Positions 5,870 through 35,203 of a stretch of DNA of 64,000 bases are shown here, one piece after another. The DNA comes from Nitrosopumilaceae archaeon. Lineage in GTDB: Archaea > Thermoproteota > Nitrososphaeria > Nitrososphaerales > Nitrosopumilaceae. The DNA is taken from positions 736,001 through 800,000 of the forward strand of contig OZ242365.1 in assembly GCA_965208905.1 (NCBI GenBank), written 5' to 3'. The translations under genes and the position numbers were made by a program. The notes below the pieces were generated by a model. The model had not been told where the DNA came from. It was given only the letters and a program-made list of their open reading frames with translations, and ran no database searches. Each line of letters begins with the position of its first letter. Position 1 is the first letter of the stretch.

Positions 5870-6004
5870 TCTTGCCTGACTAACATCTATACCACAGACT
5901 GGTATGTTAGTTTGGTCACTGCACCACCGTACACCAGGTCACCAAGATGCACCAGTTCCGAAAAGAACCAAGATTTATAACCAAATCGACTCGTATATAT
6001 ATAG

Positions 6005-23654: not shown

Positions 23655-24030
23655 GACACCTTTAGATAATGTAACACTATATGGTACAAGGGTAGCAAAC
23701 ACATCATAAAGATACTACGATACAAGGTGAGCACATACTCACATGTTACATACGTAGCAATATGATGCACTCTGAAGTGAACGCGGACTATGGCATATTG
23801 TATAATACAAGTATAGTAGAATGGTCAAGGCGTGCGCAACACAACATCAGACTATACAAGTCGTACGACAAGGTCGGACTGGCCTTGCAAGACAAGATAC
23901 ATCTCAGTAGATATATTATATCTCCAGTTACTAGAGACGGGGCTGATGGCGCAGGCGACCCTCAGCGACATCTTAATAGAGGCATCTCTGAGTGGCGAAC
24001 TCGCCAACAGATGTATGGTAGTTCTGCGAA
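23655..24030 (+). mobile_element. Internally deleted, decayed derivative of the copy 1/2 tnpB element (boundaries approximate)
   Basis: 23682-23735 reads WYKGSKHIIKILRYKVST (cf. MKYNGGKYIIKTVQYRLRT). It is joined to LTCYIRSNMMHSEVNADYGIL...WSRRAQ...KVGLALQDKIHL (cf. FRCHDCGVLVHADINAAFNIL...WSKRAQ...KAGVVLRGKIHL). Conserved 3' hairpin at 23993-24006. Confidence 0.8.
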
Positions 24031-31496: not shown

Positions 31497-31877
31497 ATGG
31501 CGAAGAACACATCTTGGGGAAACGTGCGTGTCCGCCAGGACTTGATTGACCGAATGACCAAAGCCCTCCATACCGCCGAGCTACAACGTGAGGGATTCAC
31601 AAATGTTGCGCAGCTTACAGATAATATAATACGCAAGGCCCTGGCATCCCTTGAAGCCAAACGATTTGAACATATAAACATGTATGAGGACCATGTCAAA
31701 ATACTAGATAACCACATAGGCCGTCAAGGCCGTATAATATCCGTATACTATAAGGAAAATATGGACCCCATATGTGAATACTGCGAGGATAGCGACTGCG
31801 TACATATACAGTACGCCTGGGAGATAGGTGCAGTACGAGACATACTAAAGCAGCATGGCTTTAAGCCACCATCATGA
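31497..31877 (+). CDS. Hypothetical protein with RHH-like N-terminus and CxxC-x4-CxH zinc site
   Basis: N-terminal strand-helix-helix pattern; CEYCEDSDCVHI. Confidence 0.65.
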   Translation: MAKNTSWGNVRVRQDLIDRMTKALHTAELQREGFTNVAQLTDNIIRKALASLEAKRFEHINMYEDHVKILDNHIGRQGRIISVYYKENMDPICEYCEDSDCVHIQYAWEIGAVRDILKQHGFKPPS

Positions 31878-32094
31878 TGTGATGCCCCAAAAGTGTTGTT
31901 TTTTAGACGGTTGACCTGTTATCGTCTCCATTAGCATCTTCATATATCCCAAAAATTTTACAGTACCGTCTTCCCACTACACACTTGGTAAACAGTAGTC
32001 TAGAACTAGCGCGCTGACGCCACACAATCAATTCGCCATCCATGTATGGACTCGGGCATGGGCGTTATTGAGTATTCATAGATTATGTTGTCAA

Positions 32095-33464
32095 GGAGCT
32101 GTCAAATCTTAGAGGGATATGACAGCCTGCCGTACGGCAGATGTTGGCGAGTTACCATCCAGAGGAGATTCCATGAGATGTTCCTTGTTGGTCAGGCTTT
32201 GATGCCCGTCCTTTGGACAGCCTGTGCCGGCCATCACGTCACCAACGACACTGGGTATAGTGAGTGTCGCAAGATGTATCTTCCCTCTCAAGACCATTCC
32301 GGCCTTGGCTTGCAGTGAATAAACGGCCTGCACGCGTTTACTCCACTGCACTGCATAAAAAGTGAATAATATGTTGAACGCGGCGTTGACGTCCGCGTGC
32401 TGTACAACATCGCAGTCATGGCACCTGAATCGGCTGCCGTCGCGCCACGTGTTTGTTCTGCCGCATACACAGCACTGCTGCGATGTGTATTTCGGGTCAA
32501 TCTCGGCATATTCGGTGTTGTGCTTGAGTGACTGCTGCGCCATGTGGGACCGCGCCTCACCGCACTTGGACTGCCGCACCAGACGGTTCTTGTTCTTCTG
32601 GCCTGGGCCCTTGGTCGTCATGGTTTTGAGGTTCATGCCCTCCATGATTATTTTGTCGCATTGCGCGAACAGTTTTTTGGCAAACTTGCGCAGCTTGTCT
32701 GTCTGCCGGTTTCCCATCTTGCGGTATATGCTTTGCAGCTGCGCGTGCAGTGTACACCACTTGTGGGAGTGAAGTTTGCAGTGAGACATCTTCTTTTGAA
32801 TACGCGCGATGTTTCGTATAGTGTCCTTCTCGCGCAACATCAGCATCTCTATTCTGCCGTCCGATTTTGCCACCACAAGCGTGTGTTTGCCGCCCATGTC
32901 AATTCCCGCGTGTACGCCGGTACATACACGGTCCGGAACGTGTTCGCGTATAGTTACATGCAGCTCAAACTGTCTTTCCCTGTCCGCATTATTCGTCACA
33001 TCCACAATTTTGTACGACTGTGATGTGTCGGGCAGGCGTCCTTTCTGGAGTTTGAAGGGCGCGCCACACTTTGGGAAATACACTGTATTACCCTTGGACT
33101 TTTTGCCAAGCGGCATATTACTATACAGTGGGTAAACCTTCTTGCCATACTTTACGTGAGTGCACCCCTCCATCTTGTGGCCTTCCTTGATGGCTCCGTG
33201 AACCCAAGCCTGTGGTATGCCCTGACATATGGTGGCTATTTTGTTGGTGTCAAACACCGACAGACCGGCCCGGCGCGCCTTTATCCCTGCATTGAGCCAC
33301 ACATGACTCTCCGAATACATGATGTCAAAGTATTCTGTCAGCCTGGCAGATGTCCTTAAACGGTATTGGACAGTCTTTATAATGTACTTTCCACCATTAT
33401 ACTTCATGTGTAGTTTATAACTTGGTGCTATTTAAGCGGTATCCCCCTAAGATTTGACAGTGCC
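32095..33464 (-). mobile_element. Non-autonomous TIR element carrying only tnpB
   Basis: TIRs GGAGCTGTCAAATCTTAGAGGGATA (32095-32119) and GGCACTGTCAAATCTTAGGGGGATA (reverse complement of 33440-33464), 22/25 identical; flanked by direct repeats GTTGTCAA at 32087-32094 and 33465-33472. Confidence 0.9.
32109..33407 (-). CDS. tnpB: TnpB RNA-guided endonuclease (copy 2)
   Basis: GIDMG, IIMEGMN, TSQQCCVCG...CHDCD, HADVNAAFNIL; D-E-D triad intact; stop codon lies inside the TIR. Confidence 0.92.
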   Translation of the reverse strand: MKYNGGKYIIKTVQYRLRTSARLTEYFDIMYSESHVWLNAGIKARRAGLSVFDTNKIATICQGIPQAWVHGAIKEGHKMEGCTHVKYGKKVYPLYSNMPLGKKSKGNTVYFPKCGAPFKLQKGRLPDTSQSYKIVDVTNNADRERQFELHVTIREHVPDRVCTGVHAGIDMGGKHTLVVAKSDGRIEMLMLREKDTIRNIARIQKKMSHCKLHSHKWCTLHAQLQSIYRKMGNRQTDKLRKFAKKLFAQCDKIIMEGMNLKTMTTKGPGQKNKNRLVRQSKCGEARSHMAQQSLKHNTEYAEIDPKYTSQQCCVCGRTNTWRDGSRFRCHDCDVVQHADVNAAFNILFTFYAVQWSKRVQAVYSLQAKAGMVLRGKIHLATLTIPSVVGDVMAGTGCPKDGHQSLTNKEHLMESPLDGNSPTSAVRQAVISL

Positions 33465-33638
33465 GTTGTCAAACTCTTTATCACTTCTATAAACTGCAGG
33501 AATGGTTCAGGTGGTGTATAACTCTAAACTTCTACCGTACAATCTCTGTAGTCGTATATACATGAGTCTGAATCGAATATTTGAAAGATGGTGGATCGGG
33601 TAGGGTATGTTGGATAGTGGAACAATGCAGCCAAACTT

Positions 33639-33992
33639 TTAACGACCCTTTTGCTCCAGTATGGCTCGGATTTTCCCCACCACCTTGTCAACAACCTGGC
33701 GTGTAGCGCGGCCTGCAAACTCGGCGTGTCTAGCACGCCAGTCCAAGCTCTTGATTTGATCCGCTAAAATCACTCCTCTGACACTGCCTGCATCTGGAAG
33801 ATCTACCTCAAACGGGTAGCCCTTGATCTTGGATGTAATGGGGCAAAATAGCGCCAACCCAACCTTCTCGTTATACGCGCTGGGGCTTATCACCACGGCG
33901 GGTCTTCTTCTTGCCTGCTCATGGCCAGCCTGCGGCATGAAATCAATCCAAACTATGTCGTCCCTTTCCGGCACGTAGCCTGCATCTACCAT
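33639..33992 (-). CDS. mazF: MazF/PemK endoribonuclease toxin
   Basis: YVPERDDIVWIDFMPQAGHEQARRRPAVVISP, CPITSKIKGYPFEV, ADQIKSLDW. Confidence 0.93.
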   Translation of the reverse strand: MVDAGYVPERDDIVWIDFMPQAGHEQARRRPAVVISPSAYNEKVGLALFCPITSKIKGYPFEVDLPDAGSVRGVILADQIKSLDWRARHAEFAGRATRQVVDKVVGKIRAILEQKGR

Positions 33993-34153
33993 TCTTCTTT
34001 GCCCTGAGCCGAACCTGATTCGTGTTCGGGATGGCAATTGGTTTGGTCCACATGAGACAGCATGCTTGCCAAGTCGTACTTGTCCGTGTTAGTGTGATGC
34101 GCGCTATCAGACCTGCGTAACTCCGTACCCTTTCCAGCTGCATGCTTCATCAT
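33986..34153 (-). CDS. MazE-like antitoxin of 55 aa (below the ORF-track cutoff)
   Basis: MMKHAAGKGTELRRSDSAHHTNTDKYDLASMLSHVDQTNCHPEHESGSAQGKEEW; C-terminus resembles the MazE toxin-binding tail; overlaps the mazF start; TTATATA about 25 nt upstream. Confidence 0.7.
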   Translation of the reverse strand: MMKHAAGKGTELRRSDSAHHTNTDKYDLASMLSHVDQTNCHPEHESGSAQGKEEW

Positions 34154-34396
34154 AACACTTGTACCGCATGCAGGTATATAATAATTACAAAGACTGGTGT
34201 TCTGGCGACCTGGTGAATACTGGGAGTCGTCAAGACATCATAAATCTACTATGGGTGCTCCTGCTGTGGCGTTAGAGTGGGAAACCTTGCCACGCTCGCC
34301 GCAGTTAGACAGTTGATACGGTTGGATAGTTTATCTCGTCAACCTCTGCGGCGATAGGTGCAGCTGGCGGGCACTCGCCTTGATGTCATATGTAAG

Positions 34397-34470
34397 TGGA
34401 CCGGGTGGGATTTGAACCCACGATCTGATCCATGCCAAGGACCCATCCTACCAGTCTAGACGACCGGCCC
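34397..34470 (-). tRNA. tRNA-Ala(GGC)
   Basis: Cloverleaf with a G3:U70 pair; anticodon arm GGTCC-TTGGCAT-GGATC. Confidence 0.93.
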
Positions 34471-35115: not shown

Positions 35116-35129
35116 TCTACATCATACAG

Positions 35130-35203
35130 TGGGGACGATGGGACTTGAACCCATGCTCTCCAGTACCCGAAACTGGCAGTATACCAAGCTAACCTACGTC
35201 CCC
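35130..35203 (-). tRNA. tRNA-Pro(CGG)
   Basis: Cloverleaf GGGGACG...CCAGT-TTCGGGT-ACTGG...GTTCAAGTC...CGTCCCCA. Confidence 0.93.

Follow-up and report, generated by a model that had tools for sequence, protein, structure and literature searches.

A tnpB element with IS6-type inverted ends in a Nitrosopumilaceae archaeon: a covarying terminal hairpin suggests where the guide begins

Where does the guide of a TnpB nuclease begin when its gene lies between inverted repeats? The question is raised by a 64,000-nucleotide stretch of a Nitrosopumilaceae genome (the window), which carries two related tnpB genes, referred to here as copy 1 and copy 2 (Table 1). A previous sequence-only reading of the window had claimed that the similarity of the two copies stops on both sides at the inner edges of the terminal inverted repeat of copy 2. 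Our DNA alignment confirms this, since the similarity starts at CGCTTAAATA and stops at GCAGGCTGTCAT in copy 2 and at GCAGGCCGGCAT in copy 1, which are the inner repeat edges. The same reading had offered two places for the guide: either the repeat itself, or the flank beyond it (TTGACAACATAATC...), in which case the scaffold would include the repeat. We favour the flank, because the end of the scaffold pairs with the element terminus in a hairpin that shows compensatory changes across subfamilies and lies only 3 nucleotides (nt) away from the flank. Overall, the best explanation of the locus, which we hold to be fairly probable, is that copy 2 is a tnpB element with IS6-type ends whose repeat would serve as the last scaffold hairpin and whose flank would serve as the guide.

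The open reading frame of copy 2 exceeds the Pfam cut-offs for OrfB_IS605 (PF01385; 39.1 bits, cut-off 30.5) and for Cas12f1-like_TNB (PF07282; 52.5 bits, cut-off 26.3), and its protein matches solved ISDra2 TnpB chains with an E-value of 1.1e-5. Acidic residues are kept at three nuclease motifs, which read GIDMG, IMEGMN and HADVNAA in copy 2 vs GVDLG, AVEDLN and DRDENAA in a solved TnpB-like chain, and which we take to hold the catalytic D-E-D. Judged by its OrfB_IS605/RuvC core with a TNB zinc ribbon, its RuvC acidic residues and its structured 3' scaffold, the copy 2 product would be classed as a TnpB.

Copy 2 (locus L001) is part of a mobile element with defined edges. Positions 32095 and 33464 are where the similarity among the three closest copies, L001, L002 and L003, starts and stops; it runs from GGnACTGTC to ...GACAGCTCC, with unrelated sequence on either side. 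In public DNA runs, contigs with other flanks join at 32094|32095, the deduced terminus. The two 21-nt arms at 32099-32119 and 33440-33460 match at 20/21 positions (95% complementary), and each arm amounts to 25 nt once the outer GGnn tips are counted. This is the sole long flanking pair within 31800-33800, and none of 300 mononucleotide shuffles of that interval yielded a comparable one (21 nt, at most one mismatch, arms at least 500 nt apart). The repeat belongs to the mobile unit, because it also flanks two further copies at other genomic sites, L002 and L003; one extra right-end fragment bears the 21-mer too. Perfect 8-bp direct repeats adjoin L001 (TTGACAAC) and L003 (TGATCACG), and none adjoins L002.

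The genome, a single contig of 2.21 Mb (G000; 99.6% complete), contains 72 TnpB matches, among them 11 full-length members of the copy 2 family (L001-L011, with copy 1 as L010), nine of which have no internal stops. Flanking inverted repeats are present in 9/11 of these copies and are subfamily-specific, with lengths from 20 to ~135 nt; L005 has a mere 11-nt inverted match, and no matching pair was found at copy 1. Across 16 elements from two genomes, an 8-bp duplication is complete (8/8) in L001, L003, L006, L011 and L050, the last being an element of the sister genome, and matches at 7/8 positions in L007, L008 and L009. None was found in L002, L004, L005, L010, L047, L049 and L051, and L052 is ambiguous. 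A box of the sequence CTTAAATA is common to 10 of the 11 family copies; in copy 2 it is the TTAAATA box, presumed to act as a promoter element.

The right ends of the family carry the main evidence on the guide. All those with a defined terminus show the same order: a conserved hairpin of the form CUGNNN-NN-NNNCAG, about 7 nt (GCUGUCA in copy 2), a variable stretch, the terminus and the flank. The terminus is conserved as ...ACAG[C/T]TCC or variants of it and is followed by unrelated flank, and the stretch before it differs between subfamilies in sequence and length. In copy 2, the two arms are GCUGUCA (5', 32120-32126) and UGACAGC (3', 32098-32104); they pair around a loop of 15 nt (32105-32119), and the inverted repeat corresponds to the loop plus the 3' arm. 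From this genome, 20 scaffold-bearing right ends were collected; two of them, S877 and S1531, lack a definable terminus and were left unfolded. RNAfold paired the ~7 nt with the terminus in 16 of the 18 others and left ~3 nt unpaired. Seven more right ends came from two genomes of the same genus; of 40 other genomes, just these 2 had a match at E 1e-60. Over the resulting 25 right ends from three genomes (20 distinct arm pairs), two 6-nt blocks were compared in a fixed register, one directly following the conserved hairpin and the other ending 3 nt short of the element terminus; 95/120 cells were paired, compared with 33-57 when the 3' arm was slid by 1-3 nt. This count was not attained in any of 20000 permutations of the 3' arms. 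The arm pairs include GCUGUC/GACAGC (copy 2), GCUGUU/AACAGC, GGUGUU/AACACC, ACUGGU/ACCGGU, AUUAUG/CAUAAU and GCCGGU/ACCAGC, and the stem persists over inter-arm distances that vary between 9 and 42 nt. The tail after the hairpin is TCC in 20/25 right ends, TCA in three and CCC in two.

An alignment of 19 sequences (A2) extends this result to the whole scaffold, in which 96.4% of the cells are paired vs 31.8-49.9% in slid registers. Sixteen pairs show changes on both sides, and 0/500 shuffles reach the observed values. In helix 11, the terminal hairpin, 4/5 basal pairs have changed on both sides. An alternative upstream partner for the 5' arm was sought in the same alignment, and the best column fits only 6/19 sequences. 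Since the 5' arm is absent from the left end of copy 2, the terminal hairpin is a structure specific to the right end. A search of 31500-34000 against Rfam found nothing, even with E-values up to 1 allowed. Taken together, this pattern of change indicates that the terminal hairpin is selected, and it would presumably act in RNA. A stem that is kept by compensatory change around a freely varying interior therefore suggests that the repeat behaves as scaffold and not as guide.

This result bears directly on the proposal that the repeat is the guide. Here the scaffold would end at ...GGCUGUCA(U) and the guide would be ATCCCTCTAAGATTTGACAG, so that TnpB would permanently target the left repeat, next to its own promoter, as well as other ends of the subfamily, with autoregulation or end cleavage as the outcome. 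The match behind the proposal was reproduced: the 20-mer matches 33441-33460 at 19/20 positions. It has one mismatch to each of the left repeats of L001-L003, which adjoin the TTAAATA box, and it matches right ends of the same subfamily too. The family-wide sequence conservation also ends at the point where this guide would start, and the succession of hairpin, ~7 nt and guide would resemble stem 4, ~6 nt and guide as outlined for ISDra2 (PMC10097598). In the copy 2 subfamily, self and target could be separated by their 5' neighbours, TAAGCGGT at the left target and GCTGTCAT at the encoding right end. However, the 20-mer is made up of the loop and the 3' arm of a conserved hairpin under compensatory change, and the 7 nt that would have to serve as a pseudoknot strand covary with the terminus but not with any upstream stretch. 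In L004, L006 and L008 the repeat reaches into the scaffold, and the guide-encoding DNA and the left copy of the repeat share their 5' neighbour; a neighbouring motif could therefore not discriminate between self and target. In L007 and L011, the ~40 nt directly beyond the scaffold lie outside the inverted repeat and have no counterpart at the left end. Moreover, the single mismatch to the left repeat falls on guide position 6, in the motif-proximal part of the guide. We consider a repeat-derived guide quite unlikely.

A variant in which a repeat-derived guide cuts both ends, i.e. RNA-guided excision, was rejected as well. TnpB is expected to cut 15-21 nt from the inner edge, and the distance from cut to tip would vary greatly between repeats of 25 nt and of 53-135 nt.

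A different objection is that the complementarity between scaffold end and terminus has no role in RNA at all and is a by-product of DNA symmetry, arising from nested inverted repeats for the transposase or from gene conversion between the ends. The inverted repeats of L004, L006 and L008, which span 53-135 nt and include the 5' arm, fit this idea, as does a closely similar long end on an IS6-type transposase element. It does not explain the short-repeat copies L001-L003, in which the left end has no 5' arm, nor the finding that within one TnpB family different terminus types (...ACAGCTCC, ...ACACCTCC, ...ATAATTCC and ...CCGGTTCC) keep matching 5' arms. The freely varying inter-arm stretches next to a kept stem likewise speak against it, and we regard such an origin as very unlikely.

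With the flank as guide, the observed anatomy, duplications, shared ends and covarying hairpin can be combined as follows. Copy 2 would be a non-autonomous element with only tnpB and the omega-RNA between IS6-type inverted ends, and an IS6-family transposase acting in trans would move it and thereby make the 8-bp target duplications. The right inverted repeat would have a dual role, as a transposase end in DNA and, in RNA, as the loop and 3' arm of the last omega-RNA stem-loop, with the 3' arm pairing back on the 7 nt after the last conserved hairpin. The scaffold would end at the element terminus after a 3-nt UCC tail, and the guide would comprise the 16-20 nt of flank that follow, with the duplicated target bases first (TTGACAACATAATC...; in the window from 32094 downward, TTGACAAC...). 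In keeping with the canonical model, TnpB would then recognise its own insertion site in the state without the element. The action of the hairpin in RNA, the position of the RNA 3' end, a required neighbouring motif and cleavage are parts of this scheme that we infer from the sequence. The 20-mer from the flank, TTGACAACATAATCTATGAA, has itself as its sole genome match at two or fewer mismatches, as expected because the uninserted site is absent from the genome. An empty-site allele was sought in contigs from four DNA runs, and no contig joint skipping the element was found. RNA runs covering the locus were sought too, and none was listed.

Several observations weigh against the flank as guide. 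No clear neighbouring motif was found on the eight left flanks with clear duplications. A G occupies position -2 before the duplication in 7/8 of these flanks, with T or G at -1 and no mirror signal on the right, a post-hoc pattern in a small sample that could reflect either a short target-adjacent motif or a preference of the transposase. Only 3 nt separate the hairpin from the flank, vs ~6 nt in ISDra2, and no covarying pseudoknot partner was found for the UCC tail. The GG at columns 21-22 that RNAalifold paired with the terminal CC is doubtful as such a partner; the adjacent position does not covary, and other GGA sites fit equally often. Copy 1 (L010) and S1674 form no terminal hairpin in RNAfold. 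L007, L011, L009 and L010 misfit the fixed register, with 1-3 of 6 pairs, and the first three of these pair in a shifted register only, in RNAfold. In addition, the sequences are related, and in the long-repeat copies L004, L006 and L008, where the 5' arm itself lies inside the inverted repeat, the complementarity could partly be inherited DNA symmetry. L002 and L003, with 95% and 93% identity to copy 2, each have one in-frame stop (TGA and TAG, respectively), and copy 2 is the sole intact gene of its subfamily. Finally, movement of IS6 elements is described as replicative and leaves no emptied donor site (PMC7986276); the benefit of a flank guide is therefore less obvious. On an IS6-type element, such a guide might act through the conversion of uninserted chromosome copies or alleles.

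Some of these points would suit a hairpin unrelated to any guide, which might protect the 3' end of the mRNA or omega-RNA, mark a processing site or hide the transposase site in transcripts. There would be no working flank guide, and TnpB would be decaying cargo or have been put to another use. In-frame stops in two of the three copies of the copy 2 subfamily, the lack of a definable neighbouring motif or pseudoknot partner, and a replicative IS6 mechanism with no empty donor site to re-cut (PMC7986276) are all compatible with this. On the other hand, the frame of copy 2 is open over 432 residues and has acidic residues opposite the nuclease motifs of a solved TnpB-like chain. The 11 full-length copies (nine without internal stops) together with the covarying scaffold argue for selection on an RNA-protein pair, and the same layout recurs in other TnpB families of the genome. 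Decay of the system or an unrelated function of the hairpin is thus unlikely in our judgement.

The recurrence in other families can be specified. Six further TnpB families (c0, c9, c8, c1, c11 and c23) include copies between inverted repeats, mostly of the type GGGAATTATATAC... or GGTTCCTCCCGCAA..., and 8-bp duplications were seen at some copies in each of the six except c11. Most copies sit between inverted repeats in all the tnpB families examined (seven families, of the 72 matches). In families c0, c9, c1 and c8, which have inverted repeats and 8-bp duplications, the hairpin uses the inner repeat and is followed by a tail of 6-11 nt and then the flank.

Which transposase moves copy 2? Y1 TnpA (PF01797) was not found in the 99.6%-complete genome. 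When all open reading frames of 150 residues or more were compared with each other, 12 transposase-like frames formed a cluster; three of them were scanned, and all three are DDE_Tnp_IS240 (IS6 family). The IS6 family is characterized in PMC7986276 by GG tips, CTGT and CAAA motifs and 8-bp target repeats, is abundant in archaea, and moves replicatively via cointegrates. The ends of copy 2, GGAGCTGTCAAATC and GGCACTGTCAAATC, carry GG tips and CTGT and CAAA motifs in agreement with that description. Naive searches for clean inverted repeats around the 12 IS6-type genes found none, and the link was found by searching with the tnpB ends. The left end of copy 1 (5921-5960) shows 92-97.5% identity to both ends (~55-nt repeats) of two 3.6-kb IS6-type transposons (G000 1337692-1341293 and 1851327-1854930), whose cargo consists of a DDE_Tnp_IS240 transposase, a DNA-methyltransferase-like frame and a frame of 281 residues. 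Likewise, 38/42 positions of the L008 left repeat, which represents the L008/L004 type, agree with an end that lies next to an IS6-type transposase gene. The earlier idea of a helper transposon is supported by these shared ends as far as the family is concerned. For the repeat of copy 2 itself no such sharing was seen; its 21-mer was found in no transposase-bearing element of the genome and occurs only in tnpB elements and two loose matches (3-4 mismatches). Because the inner repeat has no transposase-bearing partner in the genome, the helper of copy 2 can be deduced from the shared tips only. Most likely, an IS6-family (DDE_Tnp_IS240) transposase encoded elsewhere in the genome moves copy 2.

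Further traces of IS6-type elements were seen in the genome. The 8-mer GTCCGTTG adjoins one 3.6-kb element on the left and the other on the right, a pattern that recombination or intramolecular transposition between copies would leave. Three IS6-like tips (GGGGCTGTAACATC..., GGGACTGTAACAAG... and GGGCTGTAAAGTT...) lie within ~140 nt at G000 2129151-2129290, and the first, with 3 mismatches in 21 positions, is the closest non-tnpB relative of the copy 2 repeat. At L012 (G000 2094877-2097109) an IS6-type transposase element is inserted in a tnpB copy of the copy 2 family, of which only codons ~136 onward, the scaffold and the terminus remain.

Transposases of the IS1595 type, with 11 PF12762 matches, were considered as helpers and rejected, as their ends are unlike the repeat of copy 2. 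Four of these genes (L031-L034; G000 1045415-1046377, 676506-676940, 1213091-1213525 and 1770522-1770953) are alike only from TTTTGGGAATTATA, ~50 nt before the start codon, through the stop codon. This common start resembles the repeats of other TnpB families here, namely c0, c9 and c23, and those of sister-genome members of the copy 2 family. The window itself contains a weaker, second type of DDE_Tnp_IS1595 match (L037; 45017-45343, minus strand; 53.7 bits, 215-residue frame), which may be a truncated transposase.

The variety of termini leads to a more tentative idea: it is possible, though we would not rely on it, that the last omega-RNA stem-loop is an exchangeable adapter taken from whatever transposon end the tnpB cassette rides on. 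Within the TnpB family of copy 2, the termini in this genome are IS6-like (...ACAGYTCC), and those in the sister genome include a GGAATTAT-type (...ATAATTCC) that resembles the ends of IS1595-linked elements of the present genome. Across terminus types the 5' arm of the scaffold has changed each time and the hairpin is kept. If the adapter idea is true, the nuclease could switch between DDE transposon families with its guide always at the edge of the new element, and TnpB would benefit replicative IS6-type elements by converting uninserted chromosome copies or alleles and not by repairing excisions.

Our result suggests where the guide starts for TnpB on inverted-repeat (DDE-type) transposons, which is a prerequisite for reprogramming such enzymes. 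One short sequence seems to be used twice, at the DNA level as the end bound by the transposase and at the RNA level as a stem-loop of the scaffold. A flank-guided nuclease on replicative IS6-type elements would test the generality of the excision-repair ('homing') model. The genome would be a good natural system for this purpose, as inverted-repeat tnpB copies predominate in the families examined and a Y1 transposase was not found.

In the surroundings of copy 2, an open reading frame for a PemK/MazF-like toxin (Pfam E 4e-27) occupies 33639-34037 on the minus strand, ~170 nt past the left end of the element, and tRNA-Ala (34396-34470) and tRNA-Pro (35129-35203) are next beyond it. A related strain, represented by runs X5 and X6 over 31500-32123 and 33277-33601, has the same right junction with ~1.5% differences in the flanks; its contig departs from the window sequence at 33601 and runs on into tRNA-like sequence. 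Elsewhere in the window, 23732-23965 (plus strand) gives a short match to a TnpB C-terminus and scaffold, with 35% identity to residues 325-399, and is probably a remnant of another element. Directly downstream of the right end of L005, a tandem array of ~57 units of a 5-nt CTACA type extends over G000 1691070-1691354.

Table 1. Positions in the window of the copy 2 element, its parts and the related copy 1 sequences; guide and RNA features are predictions.
Feature	Position	Strand	Remarks
Whole mobile element (tnpB copy 2, locus L001)	32095..33464	-	Right terminus 32095, left terminus 33464
tnpB copy 2 open reading frame, 432 aa	32109..33407	-	Stop codon within the terminal-hairpin loop
Right terminal inverted repeat	32095..32119	-	Reads GGAGCTGTCAAATCTTAGAGGGATA inward; IS6-type end with GG tip, CTGTC and CAAA
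Left terminal inverted repeat	33440..33464	+	Reads GGCACTGTCAAATCTTAGGGGGATA inward; adjoins promoter-like TTAAATA box
8-bp target-site duplication, right-flank copy	32087..32094	.	GTTGTCAA on the plus strand, TTGACAAC in gene orientation
8-bp target-site duplication, left-flank copy	33465..33472	.	8-mer identical to 32087-32094
TTAAATA box, presumed archaeal TATA element	33429..33435	-	~30 nt upstream of the ATG
Omega-RNA scaffold region (putative)	32095..32362	-	Overlaps the tnpB 3' end and reaches the element terminus; covariation in alignment A2
Last family-wide conserved scaffold hairpin, CUGCCG-UA-CGGCAG	32127..32140	-	Helix 10; 4/5 pairs changed on both sides
Terminal hairpin	32098..32126	-	RNAfold, fixed-register pairing test, helix 11 covariation
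Single-stranded tail UCC, 3 nt	32095..32097	-	Between terminal hairpin and flank
Candidate guide in the flank, TTGACAACATAATCTATGAA (Inference B, favoured)	32075..32094	-	Directly after the terminus; putative guide role
Candidate guide in the repeat, ATCCCTCTAAGATTTGACAG (Inference A, disfavoured)	32099..32118	-	Inside the covarying hairpin
tnpB copy 1 (locus L010), 433 aa	4537..5838	-	75% protein identity to copy 2
Copy 1 left end, 40-nt IS6-type transposon repeat, oriented inward	5921..5960	-	Match to the ends of the 3.6-kb elements

Among known systems, a repeat-derived guide aimed next to the promoter would have its functional counterpart in the TldR proteins, repressors that descend from TnpB, are nuclease-dead and use fixed natural guides. 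Unlike TldR, copy 2 keeps acidic residues at three nuclease motifs, and its candidate fixed guide would be buried in a hairpin.

ISDra2 TnpB of the IS200/IS605 group (PDB 8BF8, 8EXA and 8H1J; PMC10097598) and the copy 2 protein are both RuvC nucleases by their domains and belong to the same Pfam families. As outlined in PMC10097598, the ISDra2 omega-RNA overlaps the 3' end of the gene and the right end of the element, and a stem-loop and ~6 nt precede a guide that is encoded just outside the element. The right end of copy 2, in which a conserved hairpin abuts the terminal hairpin and is followed by a short tail and the flank, fits this general layout. In contrast to ISDra2, copy 2 has inverted repeats and 8-bp duplications in a genome in which no Y1 TnpA was found, and its last stem-loop would derive from the end of a DDE transposon; its tail is 3 nt and not ~6 nt long, and no pseudoknot partner was found for it. 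IS200/IS605 elements, including those of the IS1341 type, are summarized in PMC13565253 as having hairpin ends, no terminal inverted repeats, no target duplication and a Y1 TnpA as mover. The 25-nt inverted repeat, the 8-bp duplication and a genome in which PF01797 was not found rule out this architecture for copy 2.

Copy 2 resembles IS6/IS26 elements as described in PMC7986276 in its GG tips, its CTGT and CAAA motifs, its 8-bp target repeats and the DDE_Tnp_IS240 frames of the genome, and ends of its family (left end of copy 1, L008) are shared with IS6-type transposase-bearing elements. It differs from them in having no transposase aboard, and some repeats of its family are 53-135 nt long vs the 15-20 bp given there for the IS6 family. 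The guide-RNA scaffold of Fanzor overlaps the terminal inverted repeat (PMC10530073), which is comparable to the arrangement proposed here, although Fanzor proteins are eukaryotic or viral and belong to other transposon superfamilies; a covarying hairpin built from the repeat is not among the features described in the sections of PMC10530073 consulted.

The association of TnpB with transposons of this general kind is already known. TnpB within inverted-repeat DDE-type transposons was reported in 2023 (Altae-Tran et al., PMC10691335), and the families named in connection with TnpB are IS630 in that study and ISL2, IS630 and IS1031 in a 2026 review (PMC13565253). Neither an association of TnpB with the IS6 family nor a covarying terminal hairpin built from the repeat was found in the literature searched, which did not extend to the supplementary data of PMC10691335. 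In the account given there, the inverted ends of the DDE-associated TnpB branches DDE-1 to DDE-6 lie no more than 250 bp from the tnpB 3' end, and solo TnpBs can share their ends with transposase-bearing elements. Copy 2, with its inverted terminal repeats near the tnpB 3' end, is like the TnpBs of these branches.

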